DNA from: Candidatus Bathyarchaeota archaeon
GTDB lineage: Archaea; Thermoproteota; Bathyarchaeia; Bathyarchaeales; Bathycorpusculaceae
NCBI GenBank assembly: GCA_963702095.1
Contig: OY969706.1
Span: 1,184,001-1,248,000 of the forward strand
DNA length: 64,000 bases
Direction of reading: 5' to 3'
The stretch's first letter is position 1, and every line of letters begins with the position of its first letter. Positions 9,220 through 51,888 of this stretch are shown here, in pieces. Position numbers and translations under genes: made by a program. The notes under the pieces are model-generated. The model saw nothing but the letters and a program-made list of their open reading frames with translations. It had not been told where the DNA came from and made no database searches.

Positions 9220-9250
9220 CTTAGGGGAGATACTGTTAAGTTAAGTTACC
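9220..9250 (+). repeat. Left target-site duplication (9220-9228) plus left TIR (9229-9250)
   Basis: cttagggga|gatactgttaagttaagttacc. Confidence 0.93.
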
Positions 9251-9343
9251 TGAGGGGAAACTTATTGTTGATTTTAAATCTATCTTGTGTTTTCATAAAG
9301 GCAATATCTCGAATAGACTGTTTTTCTTTCAAGGGATAAAAAA

Positions 9344-10726
9344 ATGGCTGTCCCATATTTCAACACTAACACAATCTACTGTGGCGATAACGAAATAGTT
9401 CTCTCAAAATTTCCAGATGCAAGTGTTGATCTGATTTATGCTGACCCGCCATTCTTTTCTAACCAACAATATGAGATTATTTGGGGAGACGGTTACGAGA
9501 TTAGAGCTTTTGAAGACCGATGGAAAGGTGGAATAAACAATTATGTTGAATGGATGGTTCCAAAACTAGAGCAATGTCATAGAGTTCTGAAGACCTCAGG
9601 CTCTTTGTATTTACATTGTGACTGGCACGCAGGACATTACCTGAAGATACTTTTAGACCGCATTTTTGGGGAAAAACGATTAGTAAATGATATAATATGG
9701 AAACGTACAGCCGCGCATAGCGGCGAAGGAATAATCAAGAAGTATGGAACAATTCACGATAATATTTTGTTCTACACTAAAAGCGAAAAATACACATTTA
9801 ATCCTCAATATATGCCTTACGAACAAAAATACTTAGATAAATTTTACAACCATAAGGATGCAGATGGAAGAGTATGGCTTTCTCGTGATTTAACTGCTGC
9901 TGGGACTAGAAATGGTGAGTCAGGTAAACCTTGGAAGGGCATCGATGTAACAATGAAAGGTGTCCACTGGAAATATAGAGTATCAAAACTTGATGAATTA
10001 GAAAAGGAAGGCCGAATTTTTTTCCCAAAAAAAGCTGGAGGCATGCCAAGATATAAACAATATTTAGACGAAGCAAAAGGCATTTTACTTCAAGATATAT
10101 GGACTGATGTACCCGTTTTATCCTCTCATGCAAAAGAACGTCTAGGATACCCCACGCAAAAACCTGAGAGTCTCCTTGAAAGGATTATTAACACATCCTC
10201 AAATCCGATGGACATAGTTCTCGACCCTTTTTGCGGATGTGGAACAGCTATATCGATGGCACATAAAAAAGGGCGACGATGGGTGGGTATAGATATTTCA
10301 CCTACAGCTTGTGATTTGATGGAAAGACGAATGCGGAAACTTCACATATCACCAAACATGATGGGTATGCCACTAACAGAGGATGACCTGCGCAAGATAG
10401 CGGCTTTTGAGTTTCAGAATTGGGTCGTTAAAAGGCTCTATGGAAGAGTTACCGCAAGAAAAAGCGGTGACATGGGCATCGATGGGACAACATTTGAAGG
10501 AATCCCTATCCAAGTTAAGCAATCAGAGGACATTGGGAGAAACGTAATCGATAATTTTGAGACCGCACTGAGACGAAAAAAGAAAACAAAAGGTATAGTT
10601 GTTGCATTTAGTTTTGGGCGTGGTGCCTATGAAGAAATAGCTAGAGCTAAACTCAACGATAACTTAGATATTAAAGCTCTTTCTATCAAGGACTTGATAA
10701 AAAAGCAAGAGCAACAGCTTATTTGA
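9344..10726 (+). CDS. Beta-class N6A/N4C DNA methyltransferase fused to C-terminal Mrr-like PD-(D/E)xK nuclease domain
   Basis: DPPF, YPTQKP and LDPFCGCGT; C-term FEFQNW...DMGIDG...IQVKQ. Confidence 0.88.
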   Translation: MAVPYFNTNTIYCGDNEIVLSKFPDASVDLIYADPPFFSNQQYEIIWGDGYEIRAFEDRWKGGINNYVEWMVPKLEQCHRVLKTSGSLYLHCDWHAGHYLKILLDRIFGEKRLVNDIIWKRTAAHSGEGIIKKYGTIHDNILFYTKSEKYTFNPQYMPYEQKYLDKFYNHKDADGRVWLSRDLTAAGTRNGESGKPWKGIDVTMKGVHWKYRVSKLDELEKEGRIFFPKKAGGMPRYKQYLDEAKGILLQDIWTDVPVLSSHAKERLGYPTQKPESLLERIINTSSNPMDIVLDPFCGCGTAISMAHKKGRRWVGIDISPTACDLMERRMRKLHISPNMMGMPLTEDDLRKIAAFEFQNWVVKRLYGRVTARKSGDMGIDGTTFEGIPIQVKQSEDIGRNVIDNFETALRRKKKTKGIVVAFSFGRGAYEEIARAKLNDNLDIKALSIKDLIKKQEQQLI

Positions 10727-10871
10727 GCTTAACTCTTCCTTTTACTCTCTTTTCATATTCTTCTTCAGTTATGATGCCTTTTTCAATGAGTAAGTCTACT
10801 AGGGCTGATTGCATGTCGTCTAAGAGATCTATTTCTTCTAATGGTTCTCTTTCAATTTTTGTTTTCTTCAT
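10719..10871 (-). CDS. Small hypothetical protein (50 aa, SHOCT-like)
   Basis: LVDLLIEKGIITEEEY; ATG at 10871 overlaps the upstream RHH gene. Confidence 0.6.
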   Translation of the reverse strand: MKKTKIEREPLEEIDLLDDMQSALVDLLIEKGIITEEEYEKRVKGRVKLK

Positions 10872-11025
10872 GTTTCCCACCTTTCGCCAAGTATCCTTGT
10901 TCACTTAACCAATTCATAATAATGGTTCTTAAAGTATCACTGTAGCCCTCGCCCACTTTGCCAACAACTTCCTTATCCAAGATTTCAACCACTCCATCAG
11001 GCAGACTAACGATTATTTTCTTCAT
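10852..11025 (-). CDS. CopG/RHH-type DNA-binding protein (57 aa, absent from ORF track)
   Basis: MKKIIVSLPDGVVEILDKEVVGKVGEGYSDTLRTIIMNWLSEQGYL...; ATGA overlap with the transposase stop. Confidence 0.7.
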   Translation of the reverse strand: MKKIIVSLPDGVVEILDKEVVGKVGEGYSDTLRTIIMNWLSEQGYLAKGGKHEENKN

Positions 11026-11930
11026 TTACTAACCACCTTCAATCCTTCCTCTTTCTCAACTTTGTTACTCAAAGCATTAACTAAAAGCATGGCTTCTCTT
11101 TTTGTTGCTTCACTAATCAACCCTTTCCAAGTATTAGGCACGTTCATCCGTGCAGCTTGAGCGGGAGTTTTACCGCCTAGACTTTGATGCGGTCTAATAC
11201 AGTTATAATAGACGCTCCAACCTTCAAGCAACAGTTTTGTTGAATCATAGCTTTTTAGCCCTCTCATGCAACGTGTTCTATCTTTGAGTGTTCCATGCAA
11301 CCGCTCAACAATGTTGTTGGTTTCTCTTGCTCTAATCCCAACCCTCTGGACTAACTCAACCCTTGTATCCTTTCGCATGGTATAGAATACTTTGTTAAAA
11401 GCACTCTTGTAAACATGGCTTCCATCAACGAATACTGCTCTTGGGCGAACTTTGCTTTGGTCAACGCCTTTCTTGAAGATACTTACCGTATCTTCAAAAG
11501 TACGGGTATTTGAAAGGTGAGAAGCAACCATGAAACGTGTATCTTCGTCTATCATTTCCCAGAACCAAATACTGCGCCCTTCACAACTTAGCATAGTTTC
11601 GTCTTCATGCCATAGACCTGAAAGTTGAGGAATTTGAGACAGCATATATTCTTTGGCAAGCTCAGAATACTTCTTTATCCAATTCAGAACCGTAACTTGA
11701 GAAACCTTTTCCCCAAAAATCTGCTCAATATTCTTGCGAGTCTTTCTAAGAGACATACCATCGTAGTAGAAGTTTAGGGCAGCAACAATCATGTTTTGTT
11801 CGTTTCTCATTCGTGAGAATTTTCCGTTTGGTACAAAGATGTGACCGCAATCTTTACACTTGTAAGTTTGTTTGTTGTGGCGTATGCCTTTTTTGGTGAC
11901 GTTTTCTGAGTTGCAGTATTTACAGTTCAT
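11022..11930 (-). CDS. IS6-like DDE transposase with N-terminal Zn ribbon
   Basis: CKYC...CKDC, HTH, WHEDET, FVDG, NNIVERLHGTLKDR and YNCIRPHQSL; TATA-like TTATAAAT about 45 bp upstream. Confidence 0.9.
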   Translation of the reverse strand: MNCKYCNSENVTKKGIRHNKQTYKCKDCGHIFVPNGKFSRMRNEQNMIVAALNFYYDGMSLRKTRKNIEQIFGEKVSQVTVLNWIKKYSELAKEYMLSQIPQLSGLWHEDETMLSCEGRSIWFWEMIDEDTRFMVASHLSNTRTFEDTVSIFKKGVDQSKVRPRAVFVDGSHVYKSAFNKVFYTMRKDTRVELVQRVGIRARETNNIVERLHGTLKDRTRCMRGLKSYDSTKLLLEGWSVYYNCIRPHQSLGGKTPAQAARMNVPNTWKGLISEATKREAMLLVNALSNKVEKEEGLKVVSK

Positions 11931-12054
11931 CGGTTCACACACTCTTACAGCAATACTATAGTAAGCCTACAGTATTTATAACTTGTGGTACTCTCAAGGG
12001 ACTCTTACAACACTACCACAAAAGTTAAATCATATTTTACCCATAACATAAGCA

Positions 12055-12132
12055 TGGCGACTGGAAGGGGATTTGAACCCCCGATCAACCGCTTAGTGGG
12101 CGATGGCTATGTCCATGCTAAGCAATCCAGTC
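12055..12132 (-). tRNA. Atypical tRNA or tRNA-like gene, anticodon ACT, encoded CCA
   Basis: GACTGGA TT GCTTAGCATGGACATAGC C ATCGC CCACTAA GCGGT TGATC GGGGG TTCAAAT CCCCT TCCAGTC G CCA; all four stems pair. Confidence 0.85.
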
Positions 12133-12207
12133 ACTTATCGTTAGGGAAACACTGCGGGCGCAGGTCGGACGCAATGTTCCCTAACGGTCACTCCAGTCAA
12201 AGAATGA

Positions 12208-12927
12208 CTATGATACTTTTTCTGTTTGGAGTTTAGTCTTTTGTAGCTTTAACCATGCCTTAATCGCTTCAAGCTGTGACTCGACAAACTCTATGGCAAT
12301 TATGTCTTTTTTAACCCATATGTTATATTCATCGGACGAACCATAGGATACAACACCTGACGGTTGGCTTGGTTGCCTGACTTGAAATGATGAGGAAAGG
12401 TTAGCTGGTCTTTCTTCCATATCTTGTTCTGTCCTCCTATCGTCCTCGTAATTACTCTCTGAGGATGTTGACGGAAAACAGAATGCGACTGATTCAGTAT
12501 ATAGCTTGGCTACCTTTTCATACTTTGATTGTGCTATTTGTCTATCTACATGTAGCTTATCTACCAAATAACTGCAGAACTCGCCAGAAAGTGCTTTTGT
12601 TCCATAGTCCTTTCGTATCCTGACCCAAAGTTCAATTTTATTAAAAATAGTTTCTTTCGTAGCTTGAAGTTCTTGGGGTGTTAACGGATTAACAAGTTTT
12701 TCTGCAAGGTCTGTCGTATGTAGCAATCCTCTTCCTTCAGCAAGACCATATCTTTTAAGCGAGAACAAAATCATACCCGTCCACCCTCCACGAGCAGATA
12801 TGTTGAGCTTTTCGGCAAGTAGTTGAACGCTCATAGACTGACCTGAAAAATCATAGATTATTTTAGCCGTCTTGTATGCCTCGGGGACAGATATGTCGGG
12901 GTACTTATAACTGCCTATACTTCCCAT
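12208..12927 (-). CDS. Hypothetical wHTH protein (DUF5343-like), transposon cargo
   Basis: YPDISVPEA...LAEKL...SLKRYGLAEG...TDLAEKLVNP pattern; family assignment from memory. Confidence 0.6.
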   Translation of the reverse strand: MGSIGSYKYPDISVPEAYKTAKIIYDFSGQSMSVQLLAEKLNISARGGWTGMILFSLKRYGLAEGRGLLHTTDLAEKLVNPLTPQELQATKETIFNKIELWVRIRKDYGTKALSGEFCSYLVDKLHVDRQIAQSKYEKVAKLYTESVAFCFPSTSSESNYEDDRRTEQDMEERPANLSSSFQVRQPSQPSGVVSYGSSDEYNIWVKKDIIAIEFVESQLEAIKAWLKLQKTKLQTEKVS

Positions 12928-13080
12928 TACTAATACCTGCAATAGTATCTATAATAAGTTACTAATAAAGTTACTGTAAGGCGCAATTCACAGTATATTT
13001 TAGCGTATAAAACTACTTGAAAAACTTTCTGTAAATGTAAACCCCACTATAAAGTAGAAAAAATTTCAGAGTTTTTGTCG

Positions 13081-13111
13081 GGTAACTTAACTTAACAGTA
13101 TCCTTAGGGGA
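13081..13111 (-). repeat. Right TIR (13081-13102) plus target-site duplication (13103-13111)
   Basis: ggtaacttaacttaacagtatc|cttagggga. Confidence 0.93.
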
Positions 13112-13271
13112 TAGCGTTTATTAGTATCGAAATTCATTGTTAAAAATGCCGAACCGCGAGTTAAGGAGACTTTGTGGCGTCAAACGCTTGTTTGATACTG
13201 CAAAGATAATAACGGCTGACCCGTGACCCTCGTGTTCGAGATAGCCGATTATACAAGTTTAGAAAGGATGT

Positions 13272-51567: not shown

Positions 51568-51811
51568 TTTAACTGCCTCAAAAATCGAGCGTATTACACA
51601 TCTAATTACACATCTAATCTGTTCAAAAACGAATTAGAAGTAACTTAATCTGCTCAATTGTACATTCGAGTGAGCACTATTAATCAGTTTGTTGTAGCTT
51701 GATGGCAACTACTTCGTTAAATTGACCCTGTGCAATCAACACTTACAAGTTGCGGCAAATATCGGATATTAGAACTAAAAAGCAATCAAGCGGAAATATG
51801 AGAGAAAAAAG

Positions 51812-51888
51812 CGGGCCCGGTGGGATTTGAACCCACGATCTCCGGCTCCGAAAGGCCGACACCTTAATCCGTGCTAGGCTACGAGCCC
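51812..51888 (-). tRNA. tRNA-Arg(TCG) with one extra T in the anticodon loop
   Basis: GGGCTCG...TCGGC CTTTCGGA GCCGG...GTGGG TTCAAAT CCCAC CGGGCCC G. Confidence 0.85.

Follow-up and report, generated by a model that had tools for sequence, protein, structure and literature searches.

Between divergent genes for an M48/HtpX-like peptidase (minus strand) and a receiver-domain response regulator (plus strand), a 64,000-nt stretch of archaeal DNA (the window) holds a 3874-bp segment, 9229-13102, with five protein genes and a tRNA. What is this segment, and which of its genes belong together? The window is part of the genome of a Bathyarchaeia archaeon (G000; a single contig of 2,937,366 bp). A first-pass annotation had read the segment as an IS6-like transposon with passengers on either side of one central transposase, lying between htpX and the response-regulator gene. 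Gene calls bear out both the arrangement and the location.

The segment is very probably an intact, autonomous unit transposon (a "transporter" insertion sequence, or tIS) from an archaeal branch of the IS6 family. Four observations carry this reading: cognate terminal inverted repeats (TIRs); a 9-bp target-site duplication (TSD); a complete zinc-finger DDE transposase; and relatives that have the same ends but different cargo. Together, these elements form a family: IS6-related archaeal unit transposons with internal, mostly defence, cargo around a three-gene core.

Ends, insertion site and empty sites

The segment is bracketed by TIRs and by a TSD (Table 1). As first reported, 22 nt of the TIR, GATACTGTTAAGTTAAGTTACC, match perfectly between the two ends, and a copy of the 9-bp sequence CTTAGGGGA directly abuts each tip. 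Searched at up to three mismatches, the TIR has two matches in the window (none in 100 shuffles), and the whole genome adds no others (reversed control, none): both are the element's own ends. The element is single-copy in its host at the DNA level. CTTAGGGGA also occurs just twice in the window, touching the TIR tips both times. Because a 9-mer repeat alone is weak evidence (at least two copies in 8 of 100 shuffles), it is the position of CTTAGGGGA at the tips that carries weight. G+C content is 0.37-0.42 in the element and 0.46-0.55 in its flanks, and no gene is interrupted.

Does the site exist without the element? The HtpX-like protein was searched against 40 relatives and the window's own genome, and 19 orthologous loci were found in the relatives (closest HtpX, 81% identity). 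In seven of these, from seven related species, the two flanks are adjacent, about 250-350 nt apart, with no element between them; the right flank is unmatched in the other 12, which are uninformative. The seven empty loci, when aligned, lack the insertion and contain a single AGGGGA-type copy (exact in five, variant in two), which adjoins a conserved block, TAGCGTTTATTA. The insertion thus postdates the split of the host species from its sampled congeners. The earlier description "recently inserted" holds in that sense and in none finer: it places the insertion later than the divergence from the closest species sampled.

Also conserved in the seven congeners (spacers in L011-L022, where L-numbers denote loci from related genomes) is a block on the upstream side of the response-regulator gene, AGGGGATAGCGTTTATTAATCTCGAAAA (window 13105-13135). 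It looks like an archaeal promoter with a B recognition element (BRE) and TATA box, and the transposon appears to have inserted directly 5' of it, leaving the block intact. The element would have landed between the divergent promoters of htpX and the response-regulator gene.

Could the repeats instead have arisen by chance, or come from another element, so that the block is an ordinary immobile genomic island? A single-copy element and a twice-repeated 9-mer, which is not rare by itself, would fit. However, a TIR pair appeared in none of the 100 shuffles, the same TIR motif brackets homologous transposases at 29 other loci and diverges along with them, and related species have the empty site; an immobile island is scarcely credible. 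Two other arrangements were considered and ruled out: a composite or pseudo-compound transposon, by the single transposase and single TIR pair; and a tRNA-targeting integrative element, since the tRNA lies inside the element and the TSD does not consist of tRNA sequence.

A family across archaea

A search of one-genome-per-species contigs with the transposase gave 49 related loci. Elements were delimited in two ways. A TIR motif bracketing the transposase defined 29 of them, which with the window's own element (WIN) make 30 elements; core-gene, cargo-cluster and tRNA counts below refer to these 30. A motif-free search for inverted repeats with a TSD, applied to the remaining 20 loci, added five more. 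(The right end that the script assigned to L060 may be wrong.) The resulting 35 elements span 1912-7988 bp. Most hosts are Bathyarchaeia; the others include some Nitrososphaeria, Methanolobus vulcani B1d, and Methanomethylicus/Methanomethyliaceae (Methanomethylicia).

An exact TSD of 9 bp is present in 27 of the 35 elements and one of 8 bp in two. These comprise 23 and one, respectively, of the TIR-motif elements, and four and one of the five found without the motif. The TIR begins with GA and has G at position 7; a GG start occurs in L057, L059, L079, L081, and L098. TIR variants change in step with the transposase clades, and this co-divergence shows the ends to be cognate. Among 5.8 billion protein clusters, 856 match the transposase at E<=1e-20, and NCBI names, where given, are "IS6" or "IS1/IS6 family transposase". 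Viral contigs yielded no locus for the transposase.

A sister element in genome G021 gives a view of change within one lineage. Its transposase is 85% identical to the window's, and the two elements have in common the core, the tRNA, and a 237-aa open reading frame (ORF), at 79-83% DNA identity. The sister has its own 9-bp TSD, CAGAGTTAG, and has gained an NYN gene. In its 84-aa ORF (L049:9572-9826), the initial ~20 residues of the methyltransferase run straight into the Mrr-like carboxyl terminus. The cargo gene that encodes 460 aa in the window has thus undergone an internal deletion here, an instance of cargo decay within one lineage.

Two loci display other arrangements of the same ends. 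On a Bathyarchaeia metagenome-assembled genome (MAG) contig, CAZEPB010000011.1, a 2153-bp element (L108:167-2319) has family-type TIRs and a 9-bp TSD, CTGAGCAAT, without a transposase; its content is limited to a 233-aa ORF homologous to the 244-aa one of the window, a tRNA with anticodon ACU (hereafter tRNA(ACU)), the conserved hairpin between them, and two further ORFs of unknown nature. Its appearance is that of a non-autonomous derivative moved by a transposase acting in trans. At L070:9668-9722, the right-end TIR is present twice, the copies 26 nt apart and directly next to an inverted TIR-like sequence, which suggests adjacent or nested insertions of family members.

Transposase and three-gene core

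The transposase passes the NCBIfam IS6 equivalog model, as the IS6-like label had implied (NF033587; 129.9 bits, cut-off 125). This is the best model and the only one above its cut-off; secondary, weaker matches are to IS481 (7.5e-18) and IS3 (4.5e-12). Pfam identifies DDE_Tnp_IS240 (PF13610, 5e-20) and, at the carboxyl terminus, rve_3 (8.6e-12). The amino terminus contains a CxxC...CxxC zinc finger, an IS1/IS1595-type zinc domain. In 28 aligned transposases, residues C7, C10, C29, and C32 as well as D114, D173, and E213 are invariant, and K220, seven residues past the catalytic E, is at least 90% conserved. The true start likely is the ATG at 11930 (MNCKYC).

Two small ORFs accompany the transposase. 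The first, RHH-like and 51-83 aa long, has its start within -3 to +1 of the transposase stop in all but three of the 30 elements (27); L097, whose transposase is broken, also has one, and L086 has an AbrB/MazE-like ORF in its place. The second, SHOCT-like and 47-67 aa long, is present in all 30, starting 118-236 nt (mostly 142-152 nt) after the transposase stop; the window's copy is 61 aa long if its start is the GTG at 10904. In L088, the two are fused into one 104-aa protein. The fixed spacing, the overlap with the transposase stop, and the L088 fusion place both predicted genes, with the transposase, in the conserved core of the element. Of the passengers listed at first, the methyltransferase-nuclease, the tRNA, and the 244-aa ORF therefore stand as cargo, whereas the RHH-like and 50-aa ORFs are core, as judged by conservation across elements. 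PHROGs, PADLOC, and NCBIfam have no match for either small ORF or for the 244-aa protein. PDB sequence profiles gave zinc-finger or spurious matches only for the transposase and both small ORFs, and Foldseek found no match for a model of the 57-aa protein.

The upstream region of the transposase gene, including the palindrome TACTATAGTA, is conserved in five elements (WIN, L051, and L053-L055). The palindrome is a candidate operator, and the region may serve as promoter and operator.

Table 1. Features of the element in the window (positions in window coordinates)
Feature	Position	Strand	Details
Left TSD copy, 9 bp, CTTAGGGGA	9220..9228		abuts TIR tip
Left TIR	9229..9253	+	22 nt perfect (9229-9250); 25 nt with 1 mismatch
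Cargo: 460-aa DNA N6/N4 methyltransferase and Mrr-type nuclease fusion	9344..10726	+	Pfam, PADLOC
Core gene 3: 50-aa SHOCT-like helical ORF	10719..10871	-	fixed spacing; 30/30 elements
Core gene 2: 57-aa RHH-like ORF	10852..11025	-	start overlaps transposase stop; 28/30 elements
Core gene 1: DDE transposase, 306 aa	11022..11942	-	Pfam DDE_Tnp_IS240, rve_3; NCBIfam IS6
Transposase upstream region	11943..12054	-	TATA-like box; 10-bp palindrome TACTATAGTA (11955-11964)
tRNA, anticodon ACU	12055..12132	-	short variable arm; encoded CCA; ARAGORN; Rfam 45.5 bits (gathering score 29)
Conserved 17-18-bp hairpin between 244-aa ORF and tRNA	12139..12186	-	9/25 predicted pairs compensatory, 5 sequences
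Cargo: 244-aa ORF (probably 239 aa), no known family	12208..12942	-	N-terminal winged-helix-like fold
Right TIR	13078..13102	-	22 nt perfect (13081-13102); 25 nt with 1 mismatch
Right TSD copy, 9 bp, CTTAGGGGA	13103..13111		abuts TIR tip

Elsewhere in the host genome, outside the window, are two longer IS6-type transposase genes (L003:1486-2616 and L004:1468-2625, both minus strand). Their 376- and 385-aa products have an extra amino-terminal SWIM-like zinc finger and are 35-38% identical to the window transposase. No TIRs were found within 1.5 kb of either gene; they may be domesticated, or parts of much larger elements.

Exchangeable cargo

Everything outside the core would be exchangeable cargo: in the window's element, the methyltransferase-Mrr fusion, a winged-helix-like protein, the hairpin, and tRNA(ACU). 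The 460-aa fusion matches N6_N4_Mtase (4.3e-48; 164.6 bits), Mrr_cat (1e-05; 26 bits, cut-off 21), and PADLOC MTase_II (5.7e-71), and is predicted to be a single-chain restriction-modification enzyme. Such fusions also are present in L054, L070, L076, and L084.

Cargo ORFs of the 30 elements fall into 98 clusters, mostly singletons. A Pfam scan (E<=1e-4) of the 99 ORFs of at least 80 aa from the 29 related elements assigned 30 to a family and left 69 without one. Restriction-modification or GmrSD-type proteins account for 16 of the 30 assigned, and genes of this kind occur in 12 of the 30 elements, the window's included. This agrees with the initial proposal of a lineage that spreads restriction-modification-type genes in archaea. 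Beyond the fusions, there are GmrSD (L067, L069, and L076); a methyltransferase (L069); N6_Mtase/Eco57I enzymes and S subunits (L057, L061, L063, and L097); and Dam plus SacI (L056). Other matches are to NYN, PIN, HicB, UPF0175/DUF3368, DUF3800, HATPase_c_3, ParA, an SDH/ClpP-type protease, ArsR, and a C70 peptidase. Taken as a whole, the cargo on either side of the core is hypervariable, with many restriction-modification, GmrSD, NYN/PIN, and toxin-antitoxin genes.

The 244-aa protein has 24 homologues, all hypothetical or unnamed, and no Pfam, NCBIfam, or PHROG match. Its AlphaFold (AF2) model (mean predicted local distance difference test, pLDDT, 80) has a compact amino-terminal part (residues 1-150), a disordered linker, and a carboxyl-terminal hairpin plus long helix. 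Foldseek with the 239-aa model returned weak MarR-type winged-helix matches only (E 0.012-0.15), so the first-pass label "wHTH" (winged helix-turn-helix) is plausible, not established. In the ESM Atlas, the protein lies among unnamed clusters, the nearest named one being DUF5343 at 0.88 (a lead only).

An internal tRNA with anticodon ACU

Cargo tRNAs are a recurrent feature of the family, as 11 of the 30 elements contain one. Three have other identities: tRNA-Val(GAC) directly upstream of the transposase in a 3208-bp element of the cultured methanogen Methanolobus vulcani B1d (L086:5765-5839, plus strand; NZ_VIAQ01000015.1); tRNA-Leu(UAA) in L064; and tRNA-Ala(UGC) in L069. The other eight, in the window's element and L051-L057, are called tRNA(ACU) by ARAGORN. 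Their carriers are eight of the nine members of one transposase clade (support 100/99); the ninth, L058, lacks the tRNA.

What the first-pass annotation called a "tRNA-like gene" is, as judged by score and covariation, a bona fide tRNA. All eight copies exceed the threshold of Rfam RF00005, scoring 45-58 bits. Compensatory changes affect 12 of the 20 cloverleaf pairs across the eight, and the anticodon loop, C-Y-A-C-U-A-A, is invariant. An 83-aa plus-strand ORF that overlaps the window's tRNA has no support and was treated as spurious.

ARAGORN labels the molecule tRNA-Ser, and this label was rejected: the long variable arm is missing, the variable region being 5 nt, whereas host tRNA-Ser genes are at least 87 nt long with a long arm. 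The short arm means that tRNA(ACU) is not a normal tRNA-Ser. None of the host's 50 predicted tRNAs has another ACU anticodon. The closest host tRNA with a short arm is Arg(UCU), with 72% identity and the loop CUUCUAA.

The place and strand of tRNA(ACU) vary among elements. The adjoining gene belongs to one of three clusters (c2, the 244-aa ORF family; c5; or c11), and hhalign detected no profile similarity between the 244-aa family and the other tRNA-adjacent genes. A hairpin separates tRNA and neighbour where the neighbour is of the 244-aa family or is c11 (L051).

How widely does this tRNA occur? A pattern combining the loop and T-arm was found at seven places in 185,579 species genomes, all of them in the known elements, and had no match in viral contigs. 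A looser version applied to 401 genomes of the class gave four matches (control, none). Three are real tRNA(ACU) genes: the window's own in G000, and those in G245 and G386, each of which has a family-type TIR within ~100 nt. The fourth, L230, is not a tRNA. The loose pattern ACTAA-N12-16-GGTTCRAATCC was scanned in genome contigs, a scan that yields no frequency for tRNA(ACU): among the at least 127 matches listed, 91 lie in no called tRNA, 34 lie in ordinary tRNAs, one has a four-letter anticodon call, and one is a further tRNA(ACU) (L200).

The loose scan led to a tRNA whose body is of another build but whose anticodon loop, CCACUAA, is the same, encoded on the Thermoplasmatales MAG chromosome CP070724.1 (L229:3919-6355). 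It lies ~370 nt upstream of an unrelated DDE_Tnp_1 transposase, and is adjoined by a MazE/AbrB-like ORF and a winged-helix (TBPIP/FUR-like) gene. No element ends were found at this locus.

AGU codons and the role of the tRNA

An ACU anticodon directs attention to AGU codons, and these are enriched about threefold in the transposases that travel with the tRNA. AGT makes up 22.0 per 1000 codons (33% of Ser codons) in the eight transposases with tRNA(ACU), in comparison with 6.5 (12%) in those of the other 22 elements, 7.1 (11%) in long host ORFs, and 6.3 (13%) in the L058 transposase from the same clade. The Thermoplasmatales DDE_Tnp_1 transposase, which adjoins another tRNA(ACU), has 22.3 (30%), as against 13.3 (20%) in its neighbours. 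The link between AGU and the tRNA is a correlation, one that makes the idea of a private decoder testable; it is not a finding.

A first, tentative and on present evidence somewhat unlikely, reading is that tRNA(ACU) is the element's own decoder of AGU, a codon that the host seldom uses and the transposase uses in excess, and that it boosts or conditions transposase synthesis. The codon frequencies fit, as do the invariance of the loop while the stems covary, and the confinement of the exact pattern to these elements. However, the eight transposases are kin, so that the events are few; the excess is confined to ~11 alignment columns (one a conserved Ser/Thr, the others Asn/Gln, Ala, or mixed); and cargo genes show no excess (14.1 vs 12.9 per 1000). 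Moreover, the tRNA is without the long variable arm on which seryl-tRNA synthetases ordinarily depend, its body and loop most resemble host tRNA-Arg(UCU), and tRNAs with A34 are unusual in archaea. Recoding of AGU to Arg was considered and is unsupported, as the AGT columns show no pattern pointing to Arg.

The Arg-like features suggest a second, non-decoding role, which we regard as distinctly unlikely: a decoy or replacement for a tRNA-Arg-type loop attacked by an anticodon nuclease, with the winged-helix protein and hairpin as its module. Consistent with this are the Arg-like body, C35 and U36, an A at the D-loop position used by tRNA-Arg, and the identity of the closest host type-I tRNA, Arg(UCU). 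The tRNA also travels with defence and RNase cargo (for example, NYN and PIN), and the winged-helix gene, hairpin, and tRNA are retained together in the transposase-less L108. Yet no anticodon-nuclease gene was identified in the window element, the tRNA-adjacent genes differ without profile similarity, and the AGT enrichment is left unexplained.

An unlikely but broader proposal is that tRNA(ACU), whose anticodon is one that cells as a rule avoid, and which often comes with a winged-helix gene and a leader hairpin, is no random cargo but a transposon-specific device employed by unrelated families (IS6-like and DDE_Tnp_1) whose transposases are rich in AGU. If so, the element itself would supply what is needed to translate, or protect, its transposase. 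If functional, tRNA(ACU) would amount to a novel mode of contact between a transposon and host translation.

Relation to known elements

IS6/IS26 elements are the textbook example of insertion sequences that mobilise resistance genes in pairs and not singly. In tIS and unit transposons (the Tn3 family), one set of ends encloses both transposition and passenger genes, and Tn7-like elements carry defence cargo. The window's element has the latter build: one TIR pair encloses the methyltransferase-Mrr fusion as well as the 244-aa ORF and the tRNA, and cargo varies among relatives with the same core. It is like the tIS, Tn3, and Tn7-like elements in having exchangeable passengers, frequently defence systems, inside one pair of ends, and differs from them in its unrelated transposase family, its lack of resolvase or target-selector genes, and the position of cargo on both sides of a small central core.

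From IS6/IS26 itself (IS26, IS257, and IS6100) the family retains the DDE_Tnp_IS240/NF033587 match, a K/R seven residues after the E, short TIRs whose seventh base is G, and the presence of just one transposase gene. It differs in length (1.9-8 kb vs 0.7-0.9 kb), TSD (9 bp vs 8 bp), and TIR start (GA vs GG); in its ~300-aa transposase with an amino-terminal zinc finger and two extra conserved small genes; and in the location of cargo, which is enclosed by a single pair of ends instead of being flanked by two IS copies. The background assumed at first (~0.8 kb, 8-bp TSD, cargo moved as composites) agrees with the relevant part of Varani et al. 2021 (PMC7986276), which describes IS6 members of 700-890 bp (a few of 1.2-1.8 kb), 8-bp repeats, and movement of cargo as pseudo-compound transposons; there, ISDsp3 is the sole IS6 entry with a passenger gene. 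The contrast drawn between the 9-bp TSD and the usual 8 bp stands with respect to the family norm; it is not new for archaea, since 9 bp is recorded for ISH15 and ISPfu5 (Harmer & Hall 2019, PMC6807381, Table 5).

The nearest bacterial likenesses are the long zinc-finger IS6 members (clade h / clade VII, "solo"), with transposases of 319-353 aa and a zinc finger, and ISDsp3 (1456 bp), with its passenger inside an IS6 entry (PMC7986276, PMC6807381). As described in the portions of those papers used here, they differ in being bacterial and 1.2-1.5 kb long and in making an 8-bp TSD; they have one passenger at most, and an RHH-like/SHOCT-like pair is not on record for them. Archaeal ISfinder "IS6" entries (ISPfu1/2/5, ISMja1, ISSis1, ISH14, and others) resemble the family in their hosts, in a similar E--x---K-R motif after the catalytic E, and in some TIRs: Table 5 of PMC6807381 gives a GA start for ISPfu1/2/5, ISMja1, and ISSis1. 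All 37 entries in that table are 671-853 bp long with transposases of 206-237 aa, and it lists no passengers. Passengers likewise go unmentioned in the part of a 2026 archaeal IS survey (PMC13343696) used here, the word "cargo" being used twice outside that part. Full-text literature searches, with ISfinder and supplements outside their scope, found no published description of this element family.

Unlike the paired IS6/IS26 elements, this archaeal branch keeps its cargo within one pair of ends, arranged about a constant three-gene core, and most of the cargo is for predicted anti-virus defence. This makes the family a likely major route of defence-gene shuffling in Bathyarchaeia and other poorly known, uncultured archaea.

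Mechanism

The transposase would bind the two GATACTG... ends and link them to a DNA target cleaved with a stagger of 9 bp. The RHH-like and SHOCT-like proteins, translationally coupled to the transposase, most likely would provide a DNA-binding regulator of transposase expression or of end recognition. Transposition would on balance probably follow the replicative IS6/IS26 route: copy-in to form a cointegrate, which is then resolved by host recombination.

Several observations weigh against these readings or parts of them. No transposition event has been observed, and the single-copy element has no known same-species empty allele (its exact 35-nt left flank has no match in metagenome contigs). 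The IS6 model is passed by 5 bits only, the protein also has an rve_3-type carboxyl-terminal motif, the TSD is 9 bp rather than the family's 8 bp, and six of the 30 TIR-motif elements have no exact TSD, one of the six matching at 8 of 9 positions. According to the relevant section of Harmer & Hall (PMC6807381), archaeal "IS6" elements may not belong with IS26. Defence roles of the cargo are predicted from domain matches. For the small core proteins, RHH_1 matches are sub-threshold (4 of 26 members, best E 0.013), as are SHOCT matches (PF09851/PF20612; 9 of 22 members, best E 0.0011, best score 19 bits, cut-off 27). The label "RHH" is tentative; the 57-aa protein is modelled with an extended amino terminus plus two helices (pLDDT 66.5, low confidence).

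Some of these points lead to a different mechanism for the same transposon: "IS6" would denote homology, and movement would be cut-and-paste or copy-out-paste-in, as for transposases with an IS481/IS3-type rve domain. This is possible, though not probable. The rve_3, IS481, and IS3 matches and the predominance of 9-bp TSDs (27 of 35 elements) are consistent with it. So is the lack, among the loci read, of directly repeated twin copies flanking a segment; in addition, archaeal IS6 elements are without experimental data, according to the same section of PMC6807381. On the other side, IS6 is the best and sole model above cut-off, the TIR combines the seventh-base G of IS6 with the initial GA that the ISPfu/ISMja1/ISSis1 group has, and the six elements without a TSD are easily produced by replicative or recombinational histories. 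Replicative transposition of the IS26 kind is, on balance, the favoured reading for this unit transposon. With a core of ~1.3 kb and 22-nt ends, the element offers a compact natural system for examining how a transposase of the IS6 type copes with long cargo and with a stagger of 9 bp.

Outside the element, the window contains one more unusual tRNA: at 51811-51888 (minus strand), ARAGORN predicts a tRNA with a four-base anticodon (ttcg) and no identity call.

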